Shown in pieces: positions 1 to 11,201 of a DNA stretch of 11,433 bases (the stretch's first letter is position 1; each line of letters begins with the position of its first letter). The stretch lies in the IMG/VR virus record IMGVR_UViG_3300042891_002161; one strand, given 5' to 3'. The position numbers and the translations under genes were made by a program. This DNA comes from a virus (lineage: Duplodnaviria > Heunggongvirae > Uroviricota > Caudoviricetes). The notes beneath the pieces are model-generated. The model was given only the letters and a program-made list of their open reading frames with translations. It was not told the DNA's origin and did not search any database.

Positions 1-697
1 TAAAAGAACTTAATAATTGTGTTGAGTTTAGGTTTTTATTCCAAACTTTTATAGTTGATATTCTACCATTGAAAAATTCAGTAGTATTTGTAACACCAAT
101 GGTTAAGTTACTAAAAGAAGGAACACTATGTGTTACACCGGGTGTATCAGTCCCTATTGATTGACCATTCAAATATATTGTTCTGTTAGTACCGTCATAA
201 GTAGCGGCTAAATGATACCAATAATCAACAGATGGTGTGGTACCAGGAATAGCCTCTAAATCAGTTCCCCACCAGTAATTTTTAAAACCACCACCAGATT
301 GTCTTAAAGCATTTACTTCATAATTATTTGAGTAACTACCCCATCCAATTATACCACCGTCTTCAATAACATCATAAGTATTAGCTTGAATCCAAGATTC
401 TATTGTATAATGAGAATTCATTAATGGTATAGCTGTTCCTGAAATTAAAGAACCAAAACTATCTGTTCCATTAAACTCAAATGAGCCTTCAAACCTGGTT
501 AAATTATTATATGTAGAACTAAAAGTCATATTTGATAATGATATATCATTATTAAGACTTGTTAAATCATACCAAGTACTACCTGTTCCAGTATAAGAAA
601 GGACATTACCAGCATCCAAGTTTAGTATTAAACTTGGAGCTGATCCTCCCGAAAAAAGAGATGTTGGTCCTAAATGTGCCGATAATTTACTTATCAT
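1..697 (-). CDS. LamG/concanavalin A-like domain protein, putative virion fibre-associated lectin-like protein (partial, runs off the left edge; not in the supplied ORF track)
   Basis: Manual translation from ATG at 697 is open to the window edge (232 codons): MISKLSAHLGPTSLFSGGSAPSLILNLDAGNVLSYTGTGSTWYDLT...FEFNGTDSF...YTIESWIQ...WYHLAATYDGTNRNIYLNGQSIG...LTIG...FFNGRISTIKVWNKNL. These are LamG_3-type motifs shared with the three domains of the 7754..9814 protein. The start lies 16 nt after the stop of the 1119-aa gene. Confidence 0.9.
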   Translation of the reverse strand, partial: MISKLSAHLGPTSLFSGGSAPSLILNLDAGNVLSYTGTGSTWYDLTSLNNDISLSNMTFSSTYNNLTRFEGSFEFNGTDSFGSLISGTAIPLMNSHYTIESWIQANTYDVIEDGGIIGWGSYSNNYEVNALRQSGGGFKNYWWGTDLEAIPGTTPSVDYWYHLAATYDGTNRTIYLNGQSIGTDTPGVTHSVPSFSNLTIGVTNTTEFFNGRISTIKVWNKNLNSTQLLSSF

Positions 698-713
698 TTA
701 TTTTAATTATTTT

Positions 714-3700
714 TTAAGCAAATGTTCCTGCTTGTCCTAATACTTGACTTAATGTACCTGTGGTATCATAAACAAACATTAATCCAATTGTATCAACTTG
801 GTTTGCTGTACCACTTGGTGCATTTCCACCATTCCATTTAATAGTTACTACACTACCGCCATTTATAGTTAAATCAGTAATCATATAAGGAGTAGCTCCT
901 TGATTTAAGATTAATGTATAAGTAATAACAGAGTTAGCATAAGAAGGATCAGGGAAGTTAGTGAAATCAACTTGAAAATCATTACTTAATGATGATAAGT
1001 ATTTAATACTACCATCTAAGAAACTAGCTGTAACACTTGAAGTACCTACTGTGATATCTTGAGCGGCTTCTACAGTTTGTTTTAAGTATGTTGTAGCGTT
1101 TAAGAATACTGAGTTATCTCTATCACAAACATTTAAGCACTGACCACCTAATATAACTGAGTTACAAGAACAACACATATAGTTATCACATCCACCTATG
1201 ATAGATGAATAGTCAGAGTCACAACTAATACAGTTATCGCGACCACCAACTATAGATGAATAATCTGAATAACTAATTCTATTACAACATCCACCAACTA
1301 TAGATGAATAATTTGAACAACAGATTGTATTATCACAACCACCAATTATGGAAGAATTATCAGAACAACACATTCTATTATCACCACCACCAATTATAGA
1401 AGATTCATTAGCACAACACATTCTACCATCACAACCTCCTATGATAGAACCATTTCTTGTACAACACATACAGTTATCATCACCACCTAAAATAGATGAG
1501 TCAATAGAGTAACCACAGATGCTGTTACAACATCCACCAATAATAGATGAGTTACAAGAACAACAAGTTACGATATTACAATTTCCACCAATAATAGATG
1601 AGTCATTAGATCCGAAAGAAGAAGTAAGTCCTCCATAGTATCCACCACAGATTCTGTTACAATTTCCACCTATAATAGATGATTGACAAGAATACCCATC
1701 AACTATATTAGAAAATCCACCAATAATAGATGAATCACAAGAGTAATTATTAATAAAATTATTTTGACCACCTATAATACTTGATTCATGCGAGTTACTA
1801 ACTGTGCCAAAATCTCCTCCAATTATTGAAGCCGAATTTGATGAAGTCATACTATTGTAAGAACCACCAACAACTGAACCATTACTAGAGTTATAAATAC
1901 TATTCATAAATCCAGTCATTGACTCAGTAGCTCCAAGTACAATACCACCAAAATTTGGTACTAAACTATCAACATTTCTATATCTGATTCTACCATTAGC
2001 ATCAGCAGTAACGAGTCTAGTATCAGTAGGCTCATTTTGTAAAGTATCAATTTTAAGACGATTTACTAAAACTGTATCATCTTCATTATTAAGTGACATA
2101 TTTGAACCACCAATAATAACAGATCTTTGTGATTCACAAATACAGTTATCATAACCACCAATTATATTAGAATTATTTGAACAACAAACACAGTTATTAG
2201 AACCACCAATAATAGTTGAGTTTTCTGAATCACAACAAATTTGATTATCACAACCACCAACAATAGAAGAATGACAAGAATAATAGTTTATTCCATTATT
2301 ATAACCTCCAATAATAGAAGATAAACAAGAGTCACTACAAATACAGTTATCATATCCACCTAAGATAATAGAACCTTCATTATCATTTATAATACGATTT
2401 CCACAACCACCAATAATAGCAGATTCACACGAATTATCACAAATACAATTTCTACAACCACCTACAATTACAGAGTTTTCATTACCATAAGATAGTAAGT
2501 TAGATGAGCCACCAACAATAGCTGAATAGTAATTATTTTCACCACATATTGTATTATTCTGACCAACAAATATACCTGAAGTGTCAGCACAACAAGCGAT
2601 TGTGTTACAATGACCACCTATAATTGATGCACCTAATTCAACACAACATAAACAGTTACGATGTCCACCGATAATAGTACCTTCATCGGTACATGACATT
2701 ATGTTACAACATCCACCAATAATAGTAGATGAGTAAGAAGCAGTCATACTATTATAACAACCACCAATTATATTTGAAGTTTGTGAGTTACTAATAGTAT
2801 TACAACAAGCATAGAATGAACCACCTCCACCTAATGTAGAAGCTTCTCTATAGTTAATATTACCAAAAGCATCAGATACTAACACTTTATCATTTGAGTT
2901 ATTACAAGATAAATTATTTATTTTTAAGTTAGGAACTAAAACAGTGTTACTTTGAGTAGCTAATGTTAAACCAGTACCACCTAAGATAACTGAATTTTCA
3001 GAATCAATAATACTATTTGTTAAACCACCAATGATTGAGTTACCACCAAGGCCTATGGAAATAATACCAAAGTAACCACTTGCTGTAGGACCACCATCAC
3101 TTGTGATAATTGAATTAGATTCACCACCAATAATTGATGATTTAGTTGAATAGCAATCTATAGTATTAAAACATCCACCTATAATTCCAGAATTATCAGA
3201 ACGACAACCTAAAGTATTATCTGTTCCTCCTAAAATAACTGAAAATCCTCCTTCATTAGCACCACATCCACATATTGTATTACAACAACCACCAATTATA
3301 GCAGAGTGTTGCGTTTCATCAATTAAATTGCATTCTCCACTAATTATAGAAGAATAATCAGACTCATTATAGATTTTGTTACATCTACCACCAACAATTG
3401 CGGAGTGATCCGAACAACAAATCGTGTTACGATACCCACCTATAATAGAGTTTAATCCAGAACCATCATATCCAACAACTTTATTACAACATCCACCAAT
3501 AATAGATGAGTTATTTGTATCACATACTATTATGTTATAACAACCACCAACAATAGCAGAATTACAAGATCCATAACTAGAATCACTATCATAACCACAA
3601 ATACAGTTATTAGAACCACCAACAATAGTTGAATTACAAGAGTTATCTTTTACATTATTATTACAACCACCAATTATAGCTGATTGATGAGAATCATCAC

Positions 3701-4073
3701 AAATGTCGTTAGAATGACCACCGATTATTGAAGAGTAATCCGAGGCACAACAAATACGGTTATCATAACCACCTAAAATAACAGCTCCTTCATTTGAGCA
3801 AATGGTATTATCACAACCACCAATAATGGCTGATTGACAAGAATCAGAACTGATTATACTATTAGGTGAAGCTAATAGGTTACTAGTATTATCATATGTA
3901 AAACTTTCTGATGAAGTTAGACCAGTACCTGTTCCTACAGGAATTTGATTATTTGGTTGATTAGATTGGTCTTCTAGTGCTAATGATTCAAGGTAAGTGA
4001 AGTTTCCATCCATTTCAGCGATAGTTAATCTTCTATTGACTTCCCCTCTTAATATTAAACTTTGTGTTGGCAT
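714..4073 (-). CDS. 1119-aa Cys-rich repeat protein, putative trimeric beta-helix/beta-roll virion fibre
   Basis: About 45 copies of a 15-17-aa unit SxxS(S/A)I(I/V)GGxxNxI in three blocks. The N-terminus LILRGEVNRRLTIAEMDGNFTYL resembles a motif I recall from phage fibre N-termini. The C-terminal ~130 aa are homologous to the C-terminus of the 461-aa protein. The ORF is certain; the function is inferred. Confidence 0.75.
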   Translation of the reverse strand: MPTQSLILRGEVNRRLTIAEMDGNFTYLESLALEDQSNQPNNQIPVGTGTGLTSSESFTYDNTSNLLASPNSIISSDSCQSAIIGGCDNTICSNEGAVILGGYDNRICCASDYSSIIGGHSNDICDDSHQSAIIGGCNNNVKDNSCNSTIVGGSNNCICGYDSDSSYGSCNSAIVGGCYNIIVCDTNNSSIIGGCCNKVVGYDGSGLNSIIGGYRNTICCSDHSAIVGGRCNKIYNESDYSSIISGECNLIDETQHSAIIGGCCNTICGCGANEGGFSVILGGTDNTLGCRSDNSGIIGGCFNTIDCYSTKSSIIGGESNSIITSDGGPTASGYFGIISIGLGGNSIIGGLTNSIIDSENSVILGGTGLTLATQSNTVLVPNLKINNLSCNNSNDKVLVSDAFGNINYREASTLGGGGSFYACCNTISNSQTSNIIGGCYNSMTASYSSTIIGGCCNIMSCTDEGTIIGGHRNCLCCVELGASIIGGHCNTIACCADTSGIFVGQNNTICGENNYYSAIVGGSSNLLSYGNENSVIVGGCRNCICDNSCESAIIGGCGNRIINDNEGSIILGGYDNCICSDSCLSSIIGGYNNGINYYSCHSSIVGGCDNQICCDSENSTIIGGSNNCVCCSNNSNIIGGYDNCICESQRSVIIGGSNMSLNNEDDTVLVNRLKIDTLQNEPTDTRLVTADANGRIRYRNVDSLVPNFGGIVLGATESMTGFMNSIYNSSNGSVVGGSYNSMTSSNSASIIGGDFGTVSNSHESSIIGGQNNFINNYSCDSSIIGGFSNIVDGYSCQSSIIGGNCNRICGGYYGGLTSSFGSNDSSIIGGNCNIVTCCSCNSSIIGGCCNSICGYSIDSSILGGDDNCMCCTRNGSIIGGCDGRMCCANESSIIGGGDNRMCCSDNSSIIGGCDNTICCSNYSSIVGGCCNRISYSDYSSIVGGRDNCISCDSDYSSIIGGCDNYMCCSCNSVILGGQCLNVCDRDNSVFLNATTYLKQTVEAAQDITVGTSSVTASFLDGSIKYLSSLSNDFQVDFTNFPDPSYANSVITYTLILNQGATPYMITDLTINGGSVVTIKWNGGNAPSGTANQVDTIGLMFVYDTTGTLSQVLGQAGTFA
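1116..3842 (-). repeat. Protein-level tandem repeat array (SxxSSIIGGxxNxI), three blocks of about 16, 14 and 15 units
   Basis: Counted from the translation. On the + strand it appears as recurrent ccaccaat(a/t)at motifs about every 45-51 nt. The DNA copies are diverged apart from short identities such as ccaccaactatagatgaataat. Confidence 0.9.
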
Positions 4074-4175: not shown

Positions 4176-4760
4176 ATGAATTTAACTAAGCACAATTTCA
4201 AAACAACGAAAGAAAACCGTGAGTCTATAAAAAATCAAAAGTCATGTACAATTTGGATGTCTGGATTATCAGGTTCTGGTAAGTCTACATTAGCTAATTT
4301 AGTTGAAGAAAAACTAATTAGTTTAGGATATCACACTTATATTTTAGACGGTGATAATACAAGAATGGGTCTTAATAAAGACTTAGGCTTTTCAGAAGAA
4401 GCCAGAATTGAAAACATTAGAAGAGTGTCAGAGGTTTGTAAACTTATGAATGATGCTGGTCTTATTGTTATTTGTTCATTTATTTCCCCATTTGAAAAGA
4501 ATAGAGAACAAGCAAAAGAAATTATTGGTGATAACTTCTTTGAAGTTTTTGTAGATGCTGATTTACAAACTTGCGAAGAAAGAGATCCAAAAGGTCTTTA
4601 TAAAAAAGCAAGATCTGGTGAAATCAAAGAATTCACTGGAATCTCATCTCCATTTGAAATGCCAAGTAAAGGCATTATGTTAAAAAATAATACAGAAGAA
4701 GATTTAGAATCTAACGTAAATTTTCTTACTGATTTAATAGTAAAAAATAATAACAAATAA
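4176..4760 (+). CDS. cysC: Adenylyl-sulfate (APS) kinase
   Basis: P-loop WMSGLSGSGKST, LDGDNTRMGLNKDLGFSEEARIENIRRV, SFISPF and CEERDPKGLYKKARSGEIKEFTGISSPFE are all canonical CysC motifs. Confidence 0.97.
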   Translation: MNLTKHNFKTTKENRESIKNQKSCTIWMSGLSGSGKSTLANLVEEKLISLGYHTYILDGDNTRMGLNKDLGFSEEARIENIRRVSEVCKLMNDAGLIVICSFISPFEKNREQAKEIIGDNFFEVFVDADLQTCEERDPKGLYKKARSGEIKEFTGISSPFEMPSKGIMLKNNTEEDLESNVNFLTDLIVKNNNK

Positions 4761-4761
4761 T

Positions 4762-5220
4762 ATGTGGTCAAAAGTAAATCACGGTGGTGAACCCACTAAG
4801 AACCCAGATAAAAAGTATGCTATCTTTGTTGGTAGATATCAACCTTATCACTATGGACATATTGAATTAATTCAACAAAAATTGGATGCAGGTGTTCCTG
4901 CTTTAGTTATGGTTAGAGATATCGCTCCTGACGAAAAGAATCCATTTACAACTGAACAAACAGTAGAAATGATTGAAAAATATCATAATGCTAAAGGCGA
5001 TGATGTAAAAGTAATGATTATCCCAGATATTGAATCTGTTAACTACGGAAGAGGTGTTGGTTATGAAATTAATGAATTTACACCAACTAGTGAAATCGCT
5101 TTTATTTCAGCTACAAAAATTAGAGAATCTATCAAAAACGGTGATGATTCTTGGAGAACAATGGTTCATGAATCTATACAAGAAGATGTAATAAAAAATC
5201 TTATGGAGGCAAATGTCTAA
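4762..5220 (+). CDS. Small HxGH-superfamily (cytidylyltransferase-like) nucleotidyltransferase; candidate minimal ATP sulfurylase
   Basis: GRYQPYHYGH (HxGH), KNPFT and C-terminal ISATKIR (SxTxxR). It is translationally coupled to cysC (TAA-T-ATG). The fold assignment is solid; the substrate is inferred from context. Confidence 0.75.
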   Translation: MWSKVNHGGEPTKNPDKKYAIFVGRYQPYHYGHIELIQQKLDAGVPALVMVRDIAPDEKNPFTTEQTVEMIEKYHNAKGDDVKVMIIPDIESVNYGRGVGYEINEFTPTSEIAFISATKIRESIKNGDDSWRTMVHESIQEDVIKNLMEANV

Positions 5221-5647
5221 TACAGAAAAAGTCTATCAAGTAAGATATAATACACAGTCTACCAATGATTCTAACCGCTGGAGATTACTTTGTGATGGTC
5301 AAGAAATATTAGTTGCTAATATTGTTATCAATTCGCAAACTTATACAACTAAAGATTATATTGAAGGAGTTGGTGATAAATGGCACGTTACTTGTCGTGG
5401 CGAACTAACAATTGAAAACGGAACAGCTTATATTAACTTTAAGAAAGATAATGCTATTGCTCGTCACTTAGCTAAAACAATCACTTGGAGAATTGTAGGA
5501 TCAATTGATACTATGTTAGTTAGTTGGTTAATAACAGGAAATCTAAAAATGGGATTGGCTATTGGTGGTGTTGAAATTTTGACTAAAATGGTACTTTACT
5601 TTTTTCACGAAAGAGCCTGGTACAAATGGGGAAAACTTAGTAGATAA
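5213..5647 (+). CDS. DUF2061-family membrane protein fused to an unknown ~80-aa soluble N-terminal domain
   Basis: C-terminal RHLAKTITWRIVGSIDTMLVSWLITG...EILTKMVLYFFHERAW matches the DUF2061 pattern (KxxxWR...YYxHERxW). It overlaps the upstream gene by 8 nt. Confidence 0.8.
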   Translation: MSNTEKVYQVRYNTQSTNDSNRWRLLCDGQEILVANIVINSQTYTTKDYIEGVGDKWHVTCRGELTIENGTAYINFKKDNAIARHLAKTITWRIVGSIDTMLVSWLITGNLKMGLAIGGVEILTKMVLYFFHERAWYKWGKLSR

Positions 5648-5682
5648 TAAAAAAACCTCTCAAAATTTGAGAGGTTTTTTTA
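5648..5682. terminator. Bidirectional intrinsic terminator between convergent operons
   Basis: TAAAAAAACCTCTC-AAAATTT-GAGAGGTTTTTTTA has a perfect inverted repeat and a 7-nt U tract on both strands. It lies between the stops at 5647 and 5689. Confidence 0.9.
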
Positions 5683-5688
5683 TGTTCT

Positions 5689-6486
5689 TTATTTCTTTTT
5701 CCAAAACTCAGTATCGTGAAGTTTCTTATACCATTCTCTACCGATAACATCAATAGCATCTGATTTAGCAGGTAGTAATCCACCTTTTTTAATTTCATGT
5801 AAATCATTACCCCAACCATATCCAGCATCATTCTCTCTAATAGTTTGTTCAATATTACTAAAATCATGTTGATAATATTCTTCACCAATAAACTCATAAA
5901 GTTTCTTAAACCAAAAATCAGGATTTGAACTCCATTGTTCATATGGAAAGAATAAAATTCTATCACCTAAACCTCTTTGAATCGTATCTAAGATAGAAAC
6001 ATAAGGTCTTCCTATAACTCCTTCATCAGAAGTCCAAACACCAATTCTACCATCAATAGTTTTCATTTTAGGATTAGAAAACTCACCGTGAATCTCACCA
6101 TCAGCTCTATTCTTTCTGAATAACTTTTCAAAAGAAGAACAAATATCTTCTAAGTTTCTAACACAAGCAATAATTCTAGCGGGTTGATTAGTTGCTTTTT
6201 CAATAAACTCAATATGAGTTGACCAACCTCTGTTTTTATCAAAGATAACTTCTTTATCAGTTTTGTGATAGTTTTGCATAATGGCTCTAATAACAGCCCA
6301 TTTGTCTTGACCTTCTTCATAAACTTTATGACCTTCTAATTTATTCCAGTTATCTCTAACTTGTAAAAGAAAGTCTAATAAAGATGAAGTTGCTGTTGTA
6401 GCAAACTTTGGATTCTGTAACAGAATATTTGTTAATAAAGTTGATCCACTTCTTGGTAGACCACCTATATAGTTGATTTTTCTCAT
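5689..6486 (-). CDS. PAPS-dependent sulfotransferase (Sulfotransfer_3-like)
   Basis: 5'-PSB loop YIGGLPRSGSTLL, 3'-PB motif IIACVRNLEDICSSF and a later PYE motif. Its start overlaps the upstream stop as ATGA. Confidence 0.9.
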   Translation of the reverse strand: MRKINYIGGLPRSGSTLLTNILLQNPKFATTATSSLLDFLLQVRDNWNKLEGHKVYEEGQDKWAVIRAIMQNYHKTDKEVIFDKNRGWSTHIEFIEKATNQPARIIACVRNLEDICSSFEKLFRKNRADGEIHGEFSNPKMKTIDGRIGVWTSDEGVIGRPYVSILDTIQRGLGDRILFFPYEQWSSNPDFWFKKLYEFIGEEYYQHDFSNIEQTIRENDAGYGWGNDLHEIKKGGLLPAKSDAIDVIGREWYKKLHDTEFWKKK

Positions 6487-7364
6487 AGTTCTAATAGTTT
6501 GTTTATTATTTCATTTGAATCAAATATCTTCAATTTATCATAAGGAAATTGAACTGGATTACCACCAATATCAAAATCATCTAAATAAGAAGAATGATAA
6601 GTATCAAATACAGGATTTTCTGTTGGTTTAACATTAGTATGTATGTCATAACCTAAAATCTCAGGTTTGTTACCAACCCAACAAACAACTGACTTTAATC
6701 CAAAAGCCGCCGCAGAGTGTTGAGAGAATGAATCAATTAATAATCTCTTTTTAGAGAAAAGAACTGATGCTAGTACCTCTCTTGTGTCTAATGATATTCT
6801 ATGACATCCTTGAATTAATGGTTGTCCTTCATAACCTAATTGATAGATATGATAATCATTTTTGAAATAATTAACAACATCTACCGCATTTTGAATTGGA
6901 ATATCTCTATACCAAGAATAAGGTCTTGATTTAGCACCACCTCCACCACCATTAGTATGTAGTAAGAAAATAGGTTTAGTAACACCTTGTGTCATTTTAT
7001 TTTTAACACCTTCTAATTCTAAAGGTGAGAAATAAAGTTTAGGAGTTTCTTTATTGTATTTAGCACCAACTAAATCACACCAAACTTGAACTAAGTGTTT
7101 TTTATTTAGAATATAATCTTCAGCGTGATAAGGATCAACTCTAAAGATTTTTACATCTTGATCTTTAATGAAATTTTTGTAAAAGTTGGCAACCTGACCC
7201 ATAGGAAATATTTGATGAACATTTGGATTATTAAACCAAACTTGAGGCCAAGCAGAAACTACAATAATATTTCTTTTTGGATCTGTTTTTTTGAGTGAAT
7301 CAATAACTGCCGTAGCTAAGATATTTTTACCGATTCCACCTTCAATGTGAAATATTGAATACAT
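6483..7364 (-). CDS. GT-B fold glycosyltransferase, GT9 (heptosyltransferase)-like
   Basis: N-terminal FHIEGGIGKNILATAVIDSLKKTDPKRNIIVV...NNPNV and C-terminal LLIDSFSQHSAAAFGLKSVVCW parallel the GT9 motifs GGIGD...P...nP and DSgxxHlAaA.g.p.v. Confidence 0.7.
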   Translation of the reverse strand: MYSIFHIEGGIGKNILATAVIDSLKKTDPKRNIIVVSAWPQVWFNNPNVHQIFPMGQVANFYKNFIKDQDVKIFRVDPYHAEDYILNKKHLVQVWCDLVGAKYNKETPKLYFSPLELEGVKNKMTQGVTKPIFLLHTNGGGGGAKSRPYSWYRDIPIQNAVDVVNYFKNDYHIYQLGYEGQPLIQGCHRISLDTREVLASVLFSKKRLLIDSFSQHSAAAFGLKSVVCWVGNKPEILGYDIHTNVKPTENPVFDTYHSSYLDDFDIGGNPVQFPYDKLKIFDSNEIINKLLEL

Positions 7365-7753: not shown

Positions 7754-9814
7754 TTATATACCGTAAATATCTCTGTTTGCTTCAAAGTTTTTAGAAACAT
7801 CTGAAGCACTTAAAGCCGAGTTATAGAATCTTACTATACCCATTTTACCATTAAACCATTGTCCATGTCCACCAATATTATTATCAAATGAACCTATAGA
7901 TAAATCATGTGTTGTATTTTTAATACTAGTAAAAGAATGACTAGTTGGTGTTCCTTGACTTATCCCATTTACATAAAGTGCAATTGAGTTTGACGCAACA
8001 TTAGTAAACACACCAACAATTTGATACCAAGTGTTTGTTGTTACGGTATATGTTGGTGAATTTAATGTTGTAGTTCCACCATTACCGACTTCCATATAGG
8101 TCACTCCGGATGAAGTAGTTCTAATACCATATCCCCAGTCCGAACTATTGGGCCCATCTGTTTTACTAAGCACACATCTACTACTACCAGCAATTACCGA
8201 ATAGTTAATCCAAACTTCAACACTGAAATCGCCAGTTGTTGGTTCTAATAAAGCACTATCAGATGATGTTATTGTTGAACTCAATCCATTAAAAGTAAAG
8301 TATGGATTTGCAAATGTGACATTTGACATTGCACCATTTAATGAATTTCCGGTTAAATCAGTAACAGTTGTTCCAGAACTTGGATAACTTAAATAACTAG
8401 CCGGATTAAAGTGAAGTTTTAAATTTGTAGTTACAAAATTACCATTTTTATAAACATTCTTTAAGGCATCATAGTTTTGTTTAATTTCATCCAGTGTTAA
8501 TTTTTTATTATATAACATCATATTTCCAACATCTCCAAAAGGTTGAGAAGATCCAAGATTGTTACCTAAACCATCATGTAAAGTTCCACCAGATCCGTAA
8601 GAAATTGTGGCACCTACCTGTGTATCGTTTATATAGAATGTTTGTGATGAATTATCTCCGACAACAGAATATTGAACCCAAACATCACCCAAAGATGAAA
8701 TATCATATCCTGAACTTTGGGACACTGTGTCCCAATATCCTAATTTGTTTGCGTCAGGATGTGCTGAATCAGGAATTGTTATTGGAGTATAACGAGGTGA
8801 TTTTGTATAAAGTAATGTTCTAAATGATGCAGAACTACTGATAATTCTTGCCCAAGAAACATATGTATATCCAGATGTTGATAATGTAGGCCCTGTACCA
8901 TCCACTACAATTCTTTTAGAACCAGTAGTACAATCAAAAGATTTGAAACCATATATTGTAGATGATGTAGCACCCGATGTTAAAGAGTGTGTATATCCAT
9001 TACCACTTAAATCATTAACTGAACCACCTGAGAAACTTGCTGGATCATTAGCATCAATCCAAATAGACATACTACCAGTATAAATATAATTAGATTTAGT
9101 AAAATCATAATTATTTAATATTTGTTGTTGACTAAGAGCTGTATTATAAACATGAAAAGCACCTAACTTCATTTTAGCTGGTGTGCCATCACCTAAACTT
9201 GTTGAATCACTAGCACCTATAGCATAATGTAAACTAGAAGGAGTAGCCCTTATAAGATTTTTAGTACCTGCTAATTGACCATTTACATAACCTCTCATTA
9301 TATTACCATCATAAGTAAGACCAACATAATACCAATTATAAAAAGGTGTTGGAATTGAAGAATTTGAACTTGTTAAACCAGCAGGTAATGTCCATAATCC
9401 AAATTTTAAATTCCCTCCAACTATTTCAATTTGAGAATCATGCCACAATATGTTTGATGTAGTCTGACCAAGCTCAGAAACAATAACACCATTATCCGTT
9501 GGATATATCCAAGTAAAATGTGAAATAATATTTGATGTATTAGTTGGTGATAATTTGGAACTAAGTGATGTGTTTGTTGATAAATAGTCATCAATGCCAT
9601 CAAAATTTATGTAACCATTTATAGAATATGTTGGGCCACTATATAATGTTGCATCACTATTACTAACTAAGTCGGTAACACTATTAGTACCTGAATATGA
9701 ATCTCTATCAGATATTTCATATCTTAAAATTAAACCATCTGTTGTAAATCCACCAACTGGTATTCTAAATAATGGTGATAAAGGCCCTGAGAATGATGAT
9801 AATCTACTTAGCAT
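7754..9814 (-). CDS. Protein with three tandem LamG/ConA-like domains (686 aa from the ATG), putative virion lectin-like/receptor-binding protein
   Basis: Three units each begin with an L..x.D/E/N...S(Y/F)...DL motif and end in G....YN..L....I..N(Y/F). WYYVGLTYDG and WYQIVGVF strands are present. The ORF track starts at TTG 9823 inside the upstream gene; the ATG at 9814 (TAA-T-ATG junction) is more likely and aligns with the start of the 697 protein. Confidence 0.88.
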   Translation of the reverse strand: MLSRLSSFSGPLSPLFRIPVGGFTTDGLILRYEISDRDSYSGTNSVTDLVSNSDATLYSGPTYSINGYINFDGIDDYLSTNTSLSSKLSPTNTSNIISHFTWIYPTDNGVIVSELGQTTSNILWHDSQIEIVGGNLKFGLWTLPAGLTSSNSSIPTPFYNWYYVGLTYDGNIMRGYVNGQLAGTKNLIRATPSSLHYAIGASDSTSLGDGTPAKMKLGAFHVYNTALSQQQILNNYDFTKSNYIYTGSMSIWIDANDPASFSGGSVNDLSGNGYTHSLTSGATSSTIYGFKSFDCTTGSKRIVVDGTGPTLSTSGYTYVSWARIISSSASFRTLLYTKSPRYTPITIPDSAHPDANKLGYWDTVSQSSGYDISSLGDVWVQYSVVGDNSSQTFYINDTQVGATISYGSGGTLHDGLGNNLGSSQPFGDVGNMMLYNKKLTLDEIKQNYDALKNVYKNGNFVTTNLKLHFNPASYLSYPSSGTTVTDLTGNSLNGAMSNVTFANPYFTFNGLSSTITSSDSALLEPTTGDFSVEVWINYSVIAGSSRCVLSKTDGPNSSDWGYGIRTTSSGVTYMEVGNGGTTTLNSPTYTVTTNTWYQIVGVFTNVASNSIALYVNGISQGTPTSHSFTSIKNTTHDLSIGSFDNNIGGHGQWFNGKMGIVRFYNSALSASDVSKNFEANRDIYGI

Positions 9815-9815
9815 A

Positions 9816-11201
9816 TTAATCAAAAGTGTTTATTTGTCCTAAGACTTGAGCCCAGACACCACCACTTCTAATAAATGTAAATCCAACTATATCAACTTGA
9901 TTTGGTGTTCCGGAAGCAGTACCACCAGCCCATCTAATTTGTTGACTAGATCCATCTATTTGAACAGCAGTTGGTATATAAGCAGTTGAACTCTGGCTCA
10001 TAACAATTGTAGTTGTTATAGCTCTATTATTTGTTATTGGAATATTTGTGAAATTAGCAGTATAATTATTAGTAACAGATGAATGATACCAATTAGATCC
10101 TGTTGAGAAATCATAAACAACAGTTGATGCCGTAGCACCAGGTGTTGAGTTAATAACTTCTGTTACTTCTTGTAAAACTGTTAATCCACTGAATGAAGCA
10201 GTACCATCAACAGTAAGTGTTTCTGATAAAGATAAACTTGTAGTAGGAGTTGTTCCGGATGTACCAGAAGTACCCGAATCACCAGTTAATCCTGAAGTAC
10301 CACTTGATCCAGAAGTGCCAGAATCACCAGTTAAACCACTTGATCCACTAGAACCAGAAGAACCACTTGATCCGCTAGAACCAGAAGAACCACTTGATCC
10401 GCTAGAACCAGAAGAACCTGAAGAGCCACTTGTTCCTGAAGAGCCAGAAGTATTATAATTACCACTTACATTAATATACCAGAAGCTGTAAGTGCTTCCG
10501 ATAGATTGTGAGTAATCAACAACAATTGACATTGATCCAGTATTTCTATCATATGAATCAATTTGTCCAATCATAGTACCATACTCTTCTGTATAATCAT
10601 CAACAACATATAAATTTGGTAATTCACTATACATTAATACTGTTTGACCTGATGTATATCCTAGATTTTCTTGTGTATTAAAATCAACAACATAACCTAC
10701 ACTAGGAACAACAATAGTTGTACTTGAAGTAGCTGAATAATTATCTGACCTACCTGAAGTACCAGATGAACCAGATGTTCCACTTGATCCAGATGTTCCA
10801 CTTGATCCAGATGTTCCACTTGATCCACTTGGTCCAGAAGCACCAATAGAGCCAGATGTTCCACTAGAACCAGAAGTTCCTGATGAGCTAGTTGTACTAA
10901 TTACATAGTCAATATAATTTTTAATTTGAATATCAATCAGTGTAGGCGTTTTTGTTAAAAGTGTATCAATTTGTGATTGAAACAAACCTAAAGCTATTTT
11001 AGCCTCATTTTGAGAGGAAAATGGAATAGATATTATTTTACCACTTTTAAAAGCAATATCTAAAATATTGTTTGAAACCCTTGTAGTACCTATGGAAAAT
11101 GGGTTTATTGTATAAACAATCATACCATTTTTATCTAATACTTGTACATTGGTATCAGATGATGTTAATGGTCTCAAAAATGTATTATAGCTAAAAATCA
11201 T
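9816..11201 (-). CDS. 461-aa collagen-like (Gly-Ser/Thr-Ser) fibre protein
   Basis: N-terminal ~100-aa domain, 15 Gly-X-Y triplets, a ~100-aa globular insert (DNYSATSSTT...GQIDSYDRNTGSMSIVVD...WYINVSG), 22 Gly-X-Y triplets, then a C-terminal domain homologous to that of the 1119-aa protein. Confidence 0.8.
   Translation of the reverse strand: MIFSYNTFLRPLTSSDTNVQVLDKNGMIVYTINPFSIGTTRVSNNILDIAFKSGKIISIPFSSQNEAKIALGLFQSQIDTLLTKTPTLIDIQIKNYIDYVISTTSSSGTSGSSGTSGSIGASGPSGSSGTSGSSGTSGSSGTSGSSGTSGRSDNYSATSSTTIVVPSVGYVVDFNTQENLGYTSGQTVLMYSELPNLYVVDDYTEEYGTMIGQIDSYDRNTGSMSIVVDYSQSIGSTYSFWYINVSGNYNTSGSSGTSGSSGSSGSSGSSGSSGSSGSSGSSGSSGSSGLTGDSGTSGSSGTSGLTGDSGTSGTSGTTPTTSLSLSETLTVDGTASFSGLTVLQEVTEVINSTPGATASTVVYDFSTGSNWYHSSVTNNYTANFTNIPITNNRAITTTIVMSQSSTAYIPTAVQIDGSSQQIRWAGGTASGTPNQVDIVGFTFIRSGGVWAQVLGQINTFD
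10248..10445 (-). repeat. 22 in-frame Gly-X-Y triplets, including a 27-bp unit x3 (GGTTCTTCTGGTTCTAG(C/T)GGATCAAGT, 10338-10418)
   Basis: Read directly from the sequence. Confidence 0.92.
10746..10880 (-). repeat. 15 in-frame Gly-X-Y triplets, including an exact 18-bp unit x3 (GGATCAAGTGGAACATCT, 10773-10826)
   Basis: Read directly from the sequence. Confidence 0.92.

Follow-up and report, generated by a model that had tools for sequence, protein, structure and literature searches.

Two unrelated phage fibres share a C-terminal knob, a candidate socket for a short N-terminal peptide of proteins encoded directly downstream

The IMG/VR virus record IMGVR_UViG_3300042891_002161 (Caudoviricetes) comprises 11,433 nt of DNA, the whole of which we refer to as the window. 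Its minus strand carries two cassettes, each composed of a fibre gene and, directly downstream, a gene for a protein with laminin G (LamG) domains. Both fibres end in the same type of C-terminal domain, termed knob here, and both LamG proteins begin with a similar short peptide, termed plug; this study concerns these two elements, their distribution and their possible interplay. The fibre gene P0001 (714..4073, 1119 residues) encodes a cysteine-rich protein of 43 repeats and a terminal knob, and P0002 (9816..11201, 461 residues) a proline-poor, collagen-like fibre. Downstream of P0002 lies P0003 (7754..9814, 686 residues), a triple-LamG protein whose ATG at 9814 follows the P0002 stop by 1 nt. 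Downstream of P0001 lies P0004 (2..697), whose ATG at 697 follows the P0001 stop by 16 nt and which runs past the window edge; 232 residues of it are visible, and its full-length relatives on syntenic contigs measure 642-649 residues.

BLASTP aligns residues 1012-1118 of P0001 with residues 359-460 of P0002 at 43% identity and 62% positives over 107 residues (E 2e-16, the value for a single pairwise comparison). Outside the C-termini the same program reveals no further alignable part. Judged by this alignment, the homology of the two ends is far beyond chance. The initial annotation, made from the letters alone, had described two unrelated fibre bodies with homologous ends, and this description holds: a non-significant alignment is ruled out, and the motifs it had named (FTNxP, WxGG, SGTxNQVD and QVLGQxxTF) are all found. 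It had placed the shared domain correctly and overestimated its size, as the folded unit comprises about 112-125 residues and not about 130. In P0001 the knob covers about residues 1003-1119 (717..1067, with the BLAST-aligned part at 720-1040) and ends in ...QVLGQAGTFA; in P0002 the modelled residues 337-461 (9819..10193) contain strands from about residue 350 onwards and end in ...QVLGQINTFD.

The shafts which these knobs terminate are of different construction. In P0001, 43 IIGG-type repeats with a period of 16-17 residues are arranged in three blocks (window 1115-3900), separated by connectors of approximately 72 and 97 residues. The protein contains 89 cysteines (8%), none of which lies in the last 130 residues with the terminal knob. 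No Pfam match was obtained for P0001; by eye, its repeats resemble those of YadA heads and beta-rolls, and the earlier label of a beta-helix-type repeat is plausible, if unproven. The shaft of P0002 matches the collagen family PF01391 with 57.8 bits (cut-off 27.2, E 9.2e-16) and holds two Gly-X-Y runs, residues 108-152 and 253-318, with one proline in total, which bears out the collagen-like body described before. At the other end of the molecule, the N-terminus of P0001 (window 3980-4073), MPTQSLILRG..RRL.IAEMDGNFTYLESL, is also present on P0001 homologues at the loci L089-L092, compared below, and an N-terminus of this type is found on a gene of L036 (4454 onward), 69 nt downstream of a 274-residue knob protein. 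This N-terminus is a further conserved module of fibres.

Both downstream proteins match Laminin_G_3 (PF13385), a family of concanavalin A-like lectins, above the cut-off, P0003 with 130.6 bits over three stretches and P0004 with 65.8 bits. Their N-termini are alike (MLSRLSSFSGPLS and MISKLSAHLGPTS), and the plug occupies approximately the first 21 residues of each, as an R-type variant in P0003 (MLSRLSSFSGPLS..., 9752..9814) and as a K-type variant in P0004 (MISKLSAHLGP..., 635..697). The longest open reading frame (ORF) of P0003 begins with a TTG at 9823 and overlaps the stop of P0002 (window 9812-9823). Since all homologues begin at the ATG, we take the ATG at 9814 as the start, which is probably the true one. 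In an alignment of LamG N-terminal regions, M1, S6, G10 and P11 are invariant, and the plug is the best-conserved segment of P0003. An AlphaFold2 model of P0003 residues 4-260, computed for this protein by itself, shows a LamG beta-sandwich from about residue 28; residues 1-21 are devoid of secondary structure in it, with a predicted local distance difference test score (pLDDT) below 50. Conservation together with disorder is a typical trait of segments that take up their fold on a partner.

The knob is by no means confined to the window. A knob profile was run against 1.84 billion representative proteins, with clusters at 50% identity, and matched 4,959 representative clusters when the limit was set to E<=1e-3, or 2,576 with the stricter limit of E<=1e-10. 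Among the best 150 clusters, the knob ends 0-3 residues from the C-terminus in almost all cases, and the proteins that bear it span 118-2982 residues. A single 1.7-kb fragment of a metagenome-assembled genome carries it among 185,579 bacterial and archaeal genomes, and its ESM Atlas clusters are 100% viral. The knob is a phage-only, very widespread and uncurated domain. Knob-ended proteins in GenBank phages include those of Actinomycetia phage DSL-LC01, Roseobacter phage CRP-3 and several T4-like Synechococcus phages; in S-PM2 the knob is carried by p177, which, like its neighbour p176, is annotated as a virion structural protein.

Searches for a family name, which the initial annotation had been unable to give, yielded little. 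Neither the window proteins nor the 29 members, scanned singly, assign the knob to a family of the local Pfam; in PHROGs there is a weak match to phrog_5906 alone and none to a tail-fibre PHROG, and the profile of the 29 knobs meets no chain among the PDB sequences at E<=10. One candidate, PF26209 (Phage_phiTE_241_C), arose from 23% of the members of one Atlas cluster and is unsupported: the last 140 residues of phiTE_241 reach an hhalign probability of 0.09% against the knob profile. A megablast search of GenBank phages with the entire window gave no match, and no exact copy of P0001 is on record. Two unusual arrangements were encountered in the family. P0093 (1345 residues) has two knobs, an internal one at 897-1017 and a terminal one, with a shaft between them, as if two fibre segments had been fused. 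In the fibre at L032:2804-5311, whose N-terminus is P0002-like, the knob is non-terminal and followed by about 315 residues with a Hint-like start (CFAKGT..., PF05203 with 22 bits, below the cut-off); this extension, unrelated to the plug, might process itself as a C-terminal module. One gene further on, at 5827, lies a gene that bears a plug (MLGKLSNFSGP).

The downstream genes were surveyed at 80 IMG/VR knob loci, further contigs and eight phage isolates, all denoted Lnnn here. Alignment of the downstream N-termini (A2) gives the consensus M-P-R-L-S-S-F-S-G, of which MLSRLSSFSGP and MISKLSAHLGP are the versions in the window. In most loci, a variant of MPRLSSFSG opens a gene 1-10 nt past the knob stop. 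A regular expression for the plug, built from the first examples, matches 27 of 55 non-redundant immediate downstream genes and, among the 458 remaining ORFs with 80 or more residues in the same loci, which served as background, a single one (Fisher p 1.5e-28). The linkage of knob and plug is specific and statistically solid. The sole background match, CRP-3 gp29, is itself the next gene past a knob gene, across a gap of 200 nt. With a leave-one-out position-specific scoring matrix, 31 of the 55 immediate downstream genes score above 6 bits; the six background ORFs above this value are all same-strand genes further along the same operon, some of them tandem paralogues. Such paralogues with identical plugs form arrays of two genes in L023 (4382-6420) and L033 (4388-7760) and of three in L026 (1155-4060), where three Gp38-like genes have their first 24 residues in common. 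Along this line, two tandem R-type LamG genes follow a collagen fibre in L089 (1-2826). Within these four arrays the plugs are identical or nearly so. The tandem arrays suggest that one fibre end takes different adhesins, either as alternatives or as a mixture.

What lies on either side of the junction is highly variable. When the members of 35 non-redundant knob/plug pairs are compared by BLAST, the shafts form 13 mutually unrelated clusters, and the bodies encoded downstream form 17. Thus, as far as the sequences allow a judgement, the junction of knob and plug is the sole constant element across the pairs. The bodies, 186-1288 residues long, include Laminin_G_3, GP38, Gly_rich_2, FG-GAP propellers, DUF285, the immunoglobulin (Ig) domain He_PIG and YHYH. 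The GP38 tail-fibre adhesin family is matched in L024 (25.3 bits) and L026 (26.7 bits; Pfam cut-off 25), and Gly_rich_2 in L063 and L080. The cyanophage bodies combine LamG with SPRY in S-BM3 and a propeller with LamG in S-PM2 p176. By these matches, the downstream bodies are binding-type modules. The initial annotation had proposed a reusable trimerisation or adaptor tip domain and had suggested a survey of stalk types and downstream genes. Reuse is confirmed with at least 13 BLAST-unrelated shaft types, on proteins of 118-2982 residues, and it is the adaptor part of the proposal that gains strong gene-context support, through the linked N-terminal peptide and the adhesin-type bodies.

The same picture emerges at shorter distance. 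Between the window cassette and its close relatives, knobs are 63-81% identical and shaft segments 23-60%. In the LamG protein, 12-15 of the first 16 residues are identical in close relatives, and the first LamG domain is 33% identical in L018. Three syntenic megaphage contigs contain both cassettes, with a knob ending in ...QVLGQMGTFA followed by MI[SG]KVSTFLGP and a knob ending in ...QVLGQI..F. followed by M[LI]SR[LV]S.FSGP; the two variants stay paired.

The AlphaFold2 model of the knob, computed from an alignment of 29 C-terminal knob segments (A1), has a pLDDT of 89.5, a predicted template modelling score of 0.80 and nine beta strands; the knob is predicted to be a nine-strand beta-sandwich. 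Foldseek found no match to this model in the PDB at E<=1e-3, and a T4 gp10 chain came out at E 0.16. When fold neighbours were ranked by exhaustive structural alignment, the best score was that of the C-terminal knob of the Pa223 capsid spike (9NY6, 7.9), followed by a baseplate chain of Klebsiella phage KP1 (9F4A, 6.8), residues 69-181 of CBA120 TSP4 (7REJ, 6.4), residues 66-168 of T4 gp9 (1QEX, 5.6), CpaA (6O38, 5.4), the C-terminal domain of an Acinetobacter phage tailspike (24QJ, 5.0) and StcE (4DNY, 4.5). The match to TSP4 lies in its XD1 region (residues 50-181), outside XD2/XD3. XD1 domains, as in T4 gp9, T4 gp10 and CBA120 TSP4 (PDB 1QEX, 5IV5, 7REJ), are sandwiches of a four-stranded and a five-stranded sheet; the strand count of the knob model is nine. 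The knob has no detectable sequence or profile homology to gp9, gp10 or TSP4. The best fold match, the knob of Pa223 gp52, is 11% identical to the knob described here. It sits on a head decoration spike, has a TNF fold according to its authors and has no known partner protein. TNF or C1q chains are absent from the 50 matches listed in a wide structural search of the knob model.

On balance, we lean towards the reading that we find most economical, in which the knob caps the fibre and at the same time receives, as a socket, the N-terminal plug of a distal adhesin with a gene of its own. We infer the physical binding of plug and knob from gene context and conservation; the trimeric state of the knob, the stoichiometry and a host-binding role of the LamG proteins are likewise deduced. 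The knob would end fibre shafts of any construction, be they collagen-like, made of beta-roll repeats or others, and probably closes a trimeric shaft. As a putative socket, it would receive the short plug of the protein encoded directly downstream, which would be a separately made distal adhesin, LamG and lectin-like in this giant phage. The virion appendage would then consist of a shaft, its knob and a binding module plugged onto it, and the shaft could stay as it is when one adhesin replaces another.

Several observations weigh against the knob as a socket. About 40% of the knob genes have no recognisable plug gene next to them. Other neighbours begin with MRRILFQETDF (four loci), MxLNFPxNP (five) or a MEREYAVIV-type sequence (two). 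The knob of L005 is 82% identical to that of the window, yet it is followed by a MRRILFQETDF protein, and the locus lacks the LamG gene found at the corresponding position in L006. Because some knob genes have such other neighbours, the knob can function without a plug partner in some phages. In S-PM2-type cyanophages the plug is much weaker or degenerate (MPVSFNSPARNLF). In Mantel tests, the pairwise similarities of knob and peptide are weakly correlated (r 0.20, p 0.015), no more so than those of knob and shaft (r 0.29), and thus shared descent suffices as an explanation and no signal of specific co-evolution is left. Natural fusions of knob and plug, which would provide Rosetta-stone evidence, were not found; the arrangements of P0093 and L032 were examined in this respect. 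Gene adjacency alone is weak evidence of binding. A complex prediction with three knobs and three 40-residue plug segments, run without controls, scored 0.01 versus a mark of 0.32 and counts neither way. In S16, one copy of gp38 is bound per gp37 trimer, and the modelled 3:3 stoichiometry may therefore be wrong.

Two of the other neighbour classes deserve a short description. The class MRRILFQETDF...PNPPAGF[KR]YIGF[DN]GP occurs in L005 (9352, directly past the knob gene), L014, L086 and L006 (12426, after the LamG gene). MxLNFPxNPxxGDxY...W.YDG..W is found directly after the knob in L028, L035, L059 and L008. Both classes may be alternative attachment modules.

As an alternative to the socket, the knob could serve trimeric shafts solely as a C-terminal domain for folding, registration and capping, and the peptide would dock at some other site of the virion or on a different common partner. 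Foldon, gC1q and NC1 domains serve collagen-type helices as units of this kind. We consider this rather improbable, as it leaves unexplained why the peptide is confined to genes downstream of knob genes, with one match among 458 other ORFs. Moreover, shafts and phage types differ, with the knob as the only upstream element in common, and capping and socket roles do not exclude each other.

It is also unlikely, in our view, that the knob itself is the receptor-binding tip, for example a glycan-binding one, and the downstream proteins are independent appendage or accessory proteins. CpaA and StcE among the fold neighbours speak for such a role. However, variability is normally greatest in the part of a fibre that touches the receptor, whereas the knob is the most conserved part (63-81% versus 23-60% in the shafts), and knobs remain recognisable in phages that infect cyanobacteria, Actinomycetia and Roseobacter. 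Nor would this reading account for the linked plug peptide.

Although fibre-then-chaperone is the classical gene order, some downstream proteins match the GP38 family and T4 gp38 is a released chaperone (PMC12892980), we give very little credence to the idea that the downstream proteins are fibre assembly chaperones of the T4 gp38/Tfa type, which would grip the knob N-terminally during folding and then be released: bodies of 186-1288 residues are composed of lectin, propeller, Ig and leucine-rich-repeat-type binding modules, p176 of S-PM2 carries the annotation of a virion structural protein, and tandem arrays of two to three paralogues with identical plugs fit alternative adhesins better.

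The principle of a fibre end combined with a separately encoded adhesin is already known, and the pair of knob and plug is best classed as a variant of this principle. In T2 and S16, gp38 sits on the gp37 trimer's tip by its N-terminus, and the remainder binds the receptor (PMC12892980). The likeness lies in the adhesin gene directly downstream of the fibre gene (here separated from it by 1 and 16 nt in the two cassettes of the window, and by 1-10 nt in most loci) and in several plug-bearing proteins that match Pfam GP38 or Gly_rich_2. In contrast to T2 and S16, the downstream bodies of the window are of the Laminin_G_3 and not of the Gp38/polyglycine-sandwich type, GP38 being found in some relatives elsewhere, and the beta-sandwich of the knob is without detectable similarity to the gp37 tip. 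The putative attachment element comprises about 10-20 residues here, whereas the exchanged stretch in gp38 chimeras measured about 113 residues. A single type of plug heads at least 17 unrelated bodies, among them the LamG proteins of the window.

A second comparison concerns the branched systems of receptor-binding proteins (RBPs) in KP32, K11, KP34, G7C, K1-5 and CBA120, in which a short conserved N-terminal peptide is likewise found on a variable second RBP. In KP32, deletion of the 29-residue N-terminal peptide of RBP2 abolishes RBP2 incorporation (PMC13352976; PMC6872550). The RBP2 peptide docks on a conserved T4gp10-like beta-sandwich module of RBP1, and the two genes are adjacent, as here. 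However, the socket of the branched systems is internal, of the XD2/XD3 type and near the N-terminus of RBP1, so that RBP2 forms a side branch, whereas the candidate socket described here is at the extreme C-terminus and the partner would extend the fibre. In addition, the fold neighbours of the knob appear to be of the XD1 and not the XD2/XD3 type, and there is no sequence similarity between the peptides of these systems and the plug. The pair of knob and plug belongs neither to the gp37-gp38 nor to the branched RBP family.

A more far-reaching version of the socket reading is put forward as a tentative possibility. Across phages, a plug of about ten residues of the MPRLSSFSG type might be a standard by which nearly any binding module, be it of the LamG, gp38-like, propeller, leucine-rich-repeat or Ig kind, is mounted on any knob-ended fibre, and tandem paralogues might load different adhesins on the three sockets of one trimer, which would result in tips of mixed specificity; such a mechanism would be undescribed. 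If true, the plug/socket standard would span T4-like cyanophages, megaphages, roseophage podoviruses and actinophages and would be a very widespread means of host-range modularity in aquatic phages, and it would explain the shuffling of adhesins among unrelated shafts. Host recognition is poorly understood in cyanophages, pelagic roseophages and megaphages, whose fibre genes are mostly annotated as hypothetical. A knob that marks the end of the shaft and a plug that marks the start of the distal adhesin would, if the reading is true, constitute a simple annotation rule for RBPs in metagenomic phages. The pair would also offer a natural connector for adhesin exchange studies, comparable to the pair of branching domain and peptide in KP32.

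Finally, the neighbourhood of the cassettes holds genes of other kinds. Between the two fibre and LamG cassettes, the window (4176-7364) encodes an APS kinase, a cytidylyltransferase-like protein, a DUF2061 protein, a sulfotransferase and a 293-residue ORF. This arrangement is mostly kept in the megaphage contigs L089, L091 and L092 (293-residue ORF, sulfotransferase, DUF2061, APS kinase), where the cytidylyltransferase-like gene was not called. In three unrelated isolates, the knob cassette is followed, a few kb further downstream, by genes annotated as tryptophan halogenase: in DSL-LC01 (L001:7791-9362), S-H38 (L002:11840-12366) and S-CREM1 (L097:7005-7300).

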